From: Eledone cirrhosa
Taxonomy: Eukaryota
Assembly: GCA_964016885.1 (NCBI GenBank)
Contig: OZ024743.1
Location: 261,268,001 to 261,332,000 of the forward strand
Direction: 5' to 3'
DNA length: 64,000 bases
The translations under genes were made by a program, and so were the position numbers. The notes under the pieces were generated by a model. It did not search any database, was not told the DNA's origin, and saw nothing but the letters and a program-made list of their open reading frames with translations. How positions within the stretch are numbered: the stretch's first letter is position 1; every line of letters starts with the position of its first letter. Positions 62,085 through 62,918 of this stretch are shown here, piece after piece.

Positions 62085-62328
62085 TATACATATATGTGTA
62101 CACATACACATATATATACATACATACATACATATATATATATATACACATACAAATAAATAAGTACTCAATAAATATATGCATATACACAGGCCCATAA
62201 AAACAGCTCTACAGGCAGAAAATGCAGATAGGTAAGAGGTACTCACATAACCATAGTGGCCGTATTTCAGGTTGAGGGGGGGGGGGGGGGGAGAAGGAGG
62301 TATAGGGGCCAATAGGAGGAGGTCGTTT

Positions 62329-62613
62329 TTAGCCATCGGGCTTTAACACTGTTTTAAAGTATTTGAAAGTTGCAAGGTTCTTGTGCATGCAGTTCTGGCA
62401 GTGTTCAGAGAGTTTGTTCAGTAGCGGGCCCTTGGCGAATAAAATTTTGTAGCTTTCTGAGATACAAAGGTCGCAGCCCTTGTGTCCTCCGTTGTAATAG
62501 CGCGCTTTCTGGAGTATTTTCCATTTAAGCGTGAAGGGGGTGGAGTTCCTTTTGAGGTCCCAAACATAGGAGGCGAGTGTTGTCTGGTTTGATTTGTCCG
62601 GTCTTCTGAAGAA
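62329..62613 (-). pseudogene. Penelope-like element GIY-YIG endonuclease C-terminal region (Naiad-type as recalled), 5'-truncated
   Basis: Open frame without a start codon, absent from the ORF track: [94 protein letters not shown]. Shows the L..Y.W.LK, CxLC..E, LLN..SE and CxH motifs. Confidence 0.75.
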
Positions 62614-62644
62614 TTAGCTTTTAATGAATTCCCTTTTCTATCAA

Positions 62645-62706
62645 CCAATGGCCTACACCCATCCCACTCCCTACCCTCTCCTACCACTTGAAGAGACCTA
62701 TAAATA
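62645..62706 (+). promoter_or_regulatory. Putative Pol II promoter of the terminal repeat (CCAAT and TATA boxes)
   Basis: CCAAT at 62645 and TATAAATA at 62699-62706, 30 nt upstream of hammerhead stem I. Confidence 0.45.
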
Positions 62707-62728
62707 CCATACTTATTTTTTGATACCC

Positions 62729-62779
62729 AGATTCCTGATGATTTCTAAAGAATGAAACAGTTCTAGTCCTGTAGAATCT
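62729..62779 (+). ncRNA. Type I hammerhead ribozyme
   Basis: agattc-CTGATGA-tttctaaagaat-GAAA-cag[ttctagtc]ctg-TA-gaatct. Stem I is 6 bp perfect, stem III has a GUA triplet, stem II is short and weak. Confidence 0.75.
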
Positions 62780-62861
62780 CATCTATATTAAAACTTTTAT
62801 ACTCTGCAATGTATTGAGTACCTTACTTACTGTGGTTACCTCCGATTCAACCCGGAATAAC

Positions 62862-62918
<57 letters not shown>

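Follow-up and report, generated by a model that had tools for sequence, protein, structure and literature searches.

Paired head-to-head 3′ ends in a (TA)n microsatellite of Eledone cirrhosa, interpreted as fragments of two Hydra-type Penelope-like subfamilies

Organization of the locus

The window analysed here is the whole 64,000-nucleotide stretch of Eledone cirrhosa DNA, and the locus under study is an insert whose two outer ends both lie in (TA)n (Table 1); the loose ends of other copies likewise enter (TA)n or (CA)n. The insert is made up of two arms in opposite orientation. Arm A, about 450 nt on the minus strand, contains the end of an endonuclease ORF followed by a UTR devoid of a hammerhead core, and arm B, about 250 nt on the plus strand, contains a hammerhead, a bulged hairpin and a tail. 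As it holds neither a reverse transcriptase (RT) nor the core of the GIY-YIG domain, the insert is not autonomous.

Other copies were drawn from sequencing runs. Thirteen of the 17 runs listed hold part of the stretch, none of them half of it, and four (X1, X5, X6 and X15), bearing three organism labels, were used at 80% likeness. The evidence from these runs is that of the rows listed, namely 40 of 352 differences and 15 of 35 joints; no RNA run containing the stretch is among those listed.

Table 1. Coordinates of the insert and of its flanking microsatellites, as positions in the window
Feature	Position	Strand	Details
(TA)n/(CA)n microsatellite, left side	61440..62153	.	
Arm A 3′ UTR	62154..62328	-	C-rich stretch, hammerhead remnant, ATTGAGTAC end motif
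Arm A end motif ATTGAGTAC	62172-62164	-	
Arm A hammerhead remnant	62240-62205	-	stem I 5′ strand 62240-62236; CTGTA and stem I 3′ strand 62214-62205
Arm A coding part, 5′-truncated C-terminal half of Hydra-clade GIY-YIG endonuclease (by motifs)	62329..62611	-	stop 62331-62329
Head-to-head junction	62610..62613	.	2-nt overlap 62610-62611; no TA repeat between arms
Arm B upstream part, 5′-truncated	62610..62728	+	CCAAT 62645, TATAAA 62699; putative promoter
Type I hammerhead ribozyme, Hydra type	62729..62779	+	core CTGATGAT...TGAA; predicted cleavage after 62773
Arm B tail, likely optional PLE tail	62796..62862	+	some copies stop near 62792-62798 without tail
Bulged tail hairpin	62801..62824	+	outer stem 4-bp, 3′ bulge 2-nt, inner stem 3-bp, then AC
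(TA)n target microsatellite, right side	62863..62925	.	

The endonuclease end of arm A

The minus strand reads through 94 codons without a stop (62613-62329), as the first-pass annotation had recognized, with CDLC as the CxxC motif and CMH as the CxH motif. The conserved residues CxxC, E, N and CxH are found in alignment A1, across which C47/C50, N66, E70 and C75/H77 vary little or not at all (peptide numbering). The CxxC/CxH motifs are termed potential Hydra-specific in the legend to Fig. S7 of Craig et al. (2021, PMC8557442).

A HMMER scan of 1.84 billion representatives returned 2,356 matches to the arm A peptide at E<=1e-3, of which the best is 50% identical, and a profile search added 14 further long proteins. 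In the relatives of at least 600 aa (n=11), YRDD, CxxC and CxH are present in all 11, DKT/DKS in 10, RW[KR] in 9 and the CxCX5-6C linker in 8. Full-length relatives carrying both RT and Hydra motifs stand at 35-47% identity, in line with the initial expectation that it would match proteins of Penelope-like elements (PLEs), and the peptide aligns with residues 630-718 of the relatives' profile (match 99.3%, E 1.8e-20). Because these relatives share the motifs that define the clade in PMC8557442, 62332-62611(-) is recognized by its motifs as the C-terminal half of a Hydra-clade PLE endonuclease, the placement following endonuclease and RT motifs and not an RT tree.

The earlier label of a GIY-YIG C-terminal region is consequently right in naming the tail of a PLE endonuclease, here assigned to the Hydra clade, but needs correction on two points: the GIY and YIG motifs themselves are not in the peptide of the window copy, and the first codon of the frame straddles the junction, other copies diverging after 62611. 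RT, RWK, DKT and CxCX5C are absent from this 5′-truncated copy, and the region concerned by the Hydra-clade criterion of no CCHH between GIY and YIG is cut off in it. The Pfam GIY-YIG model scored above the cut-off in one of 13 relatives; word-indexed protein searches with the arm A peptide alone recovered 0/12 and 0/1 candidates, and no solved structure was found for the profile of the full-length relatives (best E 0.37). A KDM6 GATA-like Pfam match of the peptide, below the cut-off, was set aside as a CxxC look-alike.

Seven positions of the arm A ORF differ from nearly all other copies, and five of them fall at first or second codon positions; at the other sites of difference among those listed (n=11), seven are third codon positions. 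This substitution pattern fits a neutrally ageing copy of a family that was once coding.

A 3′ UTR without a catalytic core

No catalytic core of a hammerhead is present in the 3′ UTR of arm A. The minus side had been described at first as lacking a matching hammerhead; this stands insofar as none is intact, but a remnant and the arm's own ATTGAGTAC are both in place. Moreover, with a variant at 62206 that is common in X1 (2,163/4,788 depth), stem I becomes a complete 5-bp helix with 62240-62236. The UTR is covered by records of X1, X6 and X15, whose differences, among those listed, are mostly substitutions. Under organism labels A and C, other copies follow the core-less UTR of the window, examples being record 17 of X6 (100 nt with 9 differences) and about 600 X15 reads over 62230-62277. 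Loss of the core is therefore not private to the window copy, and the arm A family appears to be without a hammerhead core.

The same copies under labels A and C speak against a reading in which an autonomous element encoding A has B as its inverted terminal repeat, with the matching 3′ copy deleted here. It is true that 5′ inverted, 5′-truncated copies are typical of PLEs, including Penelope-13_HM of Hydra (PMC8557442); even so, we regard this reading as highly improbable.

The UTR of arm A can also be aligned colinearly with arm B. Under one scoring scheme 6 of 500 shuffles did as well, and under another 159 and 69 of 1,000, the significance being scoring-dependent. With moderate confidence, the UTR may be considered a decayed paralogue of arm B.

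As a separate observation, the UTR contains a splice-like GT..AG stretch (62246-62209, minus strand), which at 38 nt is very short.

The hammerhead cassette of arm B

All the plus-strand features reported at first are where they had been placed, namely the CCAAT and TATAAA boxes, CTGATGA at 62735, TTGAGTACC at 62814 and (TA)n from 62863. The stretch with CCAAT and TATAAA is possibly a promoter, the hammerhead beginning about where a putative start site would lie; the CCAAT..TATA spacing arose in 139 of 20,000 shuffles. A bacterial promoter scan, uninformative for an animal locus, gave 0 matches.

The hammerhead matches a type I descriptor, with a stem I of 6 bp, a stem II of 3 bp and a stem III of 4 bp, whereas any match was obtained in one of 5,000 shuffles of 62160-62862; its PLE type, as initially proposed, is upheld. 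Its layout agrees with that of the Hydra elements in File S2 of PMC8557442. No hammerhead was matched in Rfam, either at the gathering score or in the 95 matches obtained up to E 10, and at -4.2 kcal/mol the hammerhead fold lies 3.4 kcal/mol above the MFE fold (-7.6), so that activity is only predicted, with self-cleavage expected from the model after 62773. By its own hammerhead type and its tail hairpin, as read from sequence, arm B is tied to Hydra elements independently of its neighbour.

Two candidates were rejected: Rfam miRNA matches are noise from TA repeats, and the proposal that the start of arm B represents the last codons of a sister ORF was scored equally well by 525 of 3,000 shuffles.

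Some joints in X1 and X15 go back 73-78 nt (62715-62798) and repeat the whole hammerhead, one of them in X15 being represented by 60 reads from 14 starts. They may be retrozyme-like units in tandem, very short when set against the reported 170-400 nt. In addition, loose-end consensi over 62729-62779 suggest a stem I variant, GGCTTC/GAAGCC instead of AGATTC/GAATCT, which is compensatory provided that the 'before' place counts as inclusive, its two sides coming from separate reads.

The junction and the abundance of its two sides

Similarity to arm A stops at 62611, where loose ends are found in X15 and X5. In particular, 18,817 X15 reads and one X5 contig have an identical loose end after 62611, which continues in frame into the endonuclease helix motif of alignment A1. 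On the opposite side, similarity to arm B extends down to 62610 in the contig of X6 record 19, which runs on for 89 letters. Since each arm continues beyond the junction in other copies, both are 5′-truncated 3′ ends; between the alternatives first offered, a deleted or a chimeric element, the chimeric one is the likelier.

Depth in X1 steps up about sevenfold at 62613/62614. As summed depth, which does not represent copy numbers, the ORF reaches 14,000-39,000 and the arm A UTR 4,800-22,000, against 124,000-177,000 over 62614-62709 and 1.1-1.8 million over the hammerhead and tail. The step at the junction and the 3′-ward rise in arm B are what is expected from 5′-truncated retrotransposon ends. 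The first-pass proposal of an inverted terminal repeat of one element is at odds with this step, and also with the lack of any match between the arms when 62160-62870 was compared with the window by BLASTN.

A second junction between endonuclease (-) and cassette (+) joins 62496 to 62713 in one X1 contig, with a short side of 41 letters, and several opposite-strand joints among cassette parts occur within the 15 of 35 joints listed; this recurrence counts in favour of a joint insertion of both arms. The second junction also bears on the possibility that the two arms were inserted independently, at different times, side by side in the same (TA)n. In favour of such a history, both arms have a preference for (TA)n (PMC8557442), ends of type B occur in great numbers and TA repeats abound in the window. 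What makes it improbable is that the arms share a 2-nt overlap with no TA residue between them, and that the second X1 junction has none either.

Related Hydra loci

Among 44 candidate stretches, eight Hydra loci (L003-L010) were found in contigs of bacterial genome bins, and these PLE contigs are most likely animal host DNA. In all eight, a loose hammerhead core pattern follows the ORF stop by 79-193 nt on the same strand, the stop of L006 being premature; a strict descriptor finds the post-ORF copy in six. It follows that the locus is no proof that the hammerhead of arm B belongs to the arm A family, and the initial claim that the ribozyme is linked here to an autonomous element is not sustained, the relatives carrying theirs behind the ORF in the same sense.

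The idea that head-to-head geometry is a known PLE trait, in turn, holds well. In L006 an inverted internal ORF piece lacking a hammerhead stands head to head with a hammerhead pLTR, L005 has an inverted truncated copy and hammerhead cassettes head to head, the inverted ORF pieces of these two loci facing a hammerhead end or an ORF start; the same geometry is known for Penelope-13_HM (PMC8557442).

L002, with a weak RT match of 30% over 132 residues, was discarded as a Hydra relative and kept as a control only. The hammerhead pattern had 0 matches in viral contigs and one in metagenomes, on an unrelated phage-like contig (L001). There, an intergenic hammerhead-like motif at 340-400(-), type III by eye and with no Rfam match, is identical to arm B at 24 bases of core and stem II.

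A hairpin in the tail

The TTGAGTACC element constitutes the 3′ arm of the bulged hairpin, whose inner stem is variable across loci. In a seven-row alignment, from which the rows of window position 32139 and L004 were excluded as misaligned by MAFFT, 49 of 49 cells are paired and four of seven pairs show two-sided changes, pairing counts being inflated because the structure was drawn from the same sequences. The covariation score of this alignment was reached by 0/500 shuffles, and slid controls gave at most 0.088 vs 0.537. After refitting, 98% of 100 cells pair, with pair-count measures not above shuffles (179 and 35 of 500). A hairpin model built on the seven rows matches all eight Hydra loci and neither of the two non-Hydra loci, and on the held-out L004, L006 and L009 it gave best E values, to be taken as rough, of 0.003, 0.0006 and 0.025. 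Taken by itself, the hairpin of the window has a weak fold (z -1.55).

As to its position, the hairpin comes after a hammerhead in all eight loci: that of the ORF itself in six, the upstream pLTR copy in L006 and only those of neighbouring cassettes in L005; two hairpins in series precede the ORF start in L003, L004 and L008, and by eye the hairpin is present in several published Hydra consensi. Tail-less copies are also seen, with a loose end of X5 entering (TA)n after 62795 and joints departing at 62791-62798. Copies that end before the hairpin, as this one of X5 and L005, suggest that it belongs to an optional tail.

No description of the hairpin was found in the literature covered, subscription journals and Repbase notes lying mostly outside this coverage. 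The terms 'hairpin' and 'stem-loop' are absent from the main text of PMC8557442, 'hairpin' also from its supplement, and both from the 2026 retrozyme preprint (10.64898/2026.07.22.740005), whose supplements were outside the search.

A second tail hairpin occurs in the window at 32107-32145(-) (model E 0.0035). It comes after a hammerhead-like scaffold with a 16-bp perfect hairpin and no CTGANGA core, the two together (32107-32215, minus strand) being possibly another decayed Hydra end.

Other features of the window

At 22740-23020 of the window, two identical type I hammerheads of another family stand head to head (cores 22816 minus and 22928 plus), in arms that end differently. A single type I hammerhead with a palindromic helix III lies between TA repeats at 61230-61435(+) (core 61342), and its stem I is similar to that of the 22928 family. 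That the locus would link these other hammerheads to a PLE was rejected: they are of a different family and are not tied by the locus. An inverted repeat of about 60 bp at 28440-28680 carries CTGAYGA at its inner ends and has no descriptor match.

Beside the right-hand (TA)n, 63005-63750(-) is a broken C-terminal piece with no Pfam match, which we take to resemble LINE ORF2. Finally, an open frame of 4,842 codons (6377-20902, plus strand), Thr-rich and mucin-like, runs through a 21-nt tandem repeat of 667 copies while the other two plus frames are interrupted, and a U5 snRNA-like sequence (43.3 bits) with a degenerate 3′ part is found at 3500-3617(+).

Origin of the two arms

The locus is what remains of a dead transposon from a clade already described, in a geometry likewise known for PLEs. 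That it is composed of Hydra-type PLE fragments is almost certain, and its arms probably derive from two different Hydra subfamilies. As for the complete reading, two 5′-truncated Hydra-clade 3′ ends of two subfamilies brought together head to head within a TA microsatellite by a single insertion, we lean towards it, and the same inclination applies to one event involving two RNAs.

By analogy with PAc, the Poseidon element of Anolis carolinensis (Frangieh et al. 2024, PMC11167929), a Hydra RT-EN protein encoded elsewhere would nick both strands of (TA)n. From each nick a different RNA would then be reverse transcribed, starting near its 3′ tail; the two cDNAs would stop early, and their ends would be joined at the 2-nt overlap. 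The tail hairpin is likely a candidate RT-initiation signal, that is, an RNA element for RT binding or start, as in PAc two RT start sites in a stem-loop delimit the tail (PMC11167929). A more speculative extension, which we hold only tentatively, is that an RT-EN dimer starting at such hairpins would prime RNAs of two subfamilies at one cut, and that the core-less subfamily would spread together with the abundant hammerhead-hairpin ends.

One RNA could also have sufficed. In twin priming, a second primer on one RNA leads to a 5′ inversion at insertion. In a comparable course, which we judge unlikely, a master comprising ORF A, UTR A, a spacer and B would have been 5′-inverted on insertion from a primer in the spacer, and the hammerhead of arm A would have decayed because B, supplying hammerhead and hairpin, had replaced it. 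Such read-through would account for arm A being multicopy with neither core nor hairpin: the tail-hairpin model found no match when scanned against the arm A 3′ end, and arm A depth does not rise toward that end, an unexpected pattern at an RT start site and one that speaks for a single RNA. L006, where an internal ORF piece without a hammerhead lies inverted against a hammerhead pLTR, points the same way, as does an opposite-strand joint, 62247/62731 (49 X15 reads, 2 starts; which sides are joined is not given), that links UTR of type A to sequence of type B in one and the same sense. This joint, however, also fits a sister copy that retained its hammerhead, and a joint from the end of A (about 62160) to the start of B is not among the 15 of 35 joints listed. 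Furthermore, the UTR of A looks, by a weak similarity, paralogous to B and not upstream of it, and one short UTR runs straight to the hammerhead in 8/8 relatives.

For the preferred origin from two RNAs, junctions of mixed subfamilies, if confirmed in an assembly, would demonstrate directly that the arms come from two RNA molecules. How the inverted ends and tails of PLEs form is a still-debated question (PMC8557442; PMC11167929), and a hairpin conserved across distant Hydra elements would give in vitro work on priming a defined RNA to target.

Comparison with known systems

The Hydra clade groups PLEs with a C-terminal endonuclease that insert in (TA)n and have a sense type I hammerhead near the 3′ end (PMC8557442). 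The locus has in common with it CxxC/CxH around E and N, insertion in (TA)n and, in arm B, the CTGATGAT...TGAA core, and it departs from it in that the arm A family appears to be without a core and in its tail hairpin, unmentioned in PMC8557442. Penelope-13_HM of Hydra combines the same-sense arrangement with an inverted 5′-truncated copy (PMC8557442). No published Hydra family matching the locus was found; judged by eye, the C-terminus of Hydra-1_Obim is related without being the same, and its hammerhead differs.

Non-LTR retrozymes are alike in having type I hammerhead modules linked to PLE pLTRs, and the 73-78-nt hammerhead units repeated in records of the runs are a further likeness. The window copy, in contrast, is single, with no tandem array, whereas retrozyme RNAs measure about 170-400 nt (PMC7229834; 10.64898/2026.07.22.740005).

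PAc resembles what is proposed for the locus in its optional tail, in AT-rich cutting on both strands and in RT start within a stem-loop, and its insertion in vitro does not need hammerhead cleavage (PMC11167929). It belongs to another clade, with a hammerhead that overlaps the start of the ORF and a stem-loop within the ORF itself (PMC11167929). The Hydra hairpin, unlike that of PAc, is non-coding, and in the tandem junctions of L003 and L008 it stands ahead of the ATG.
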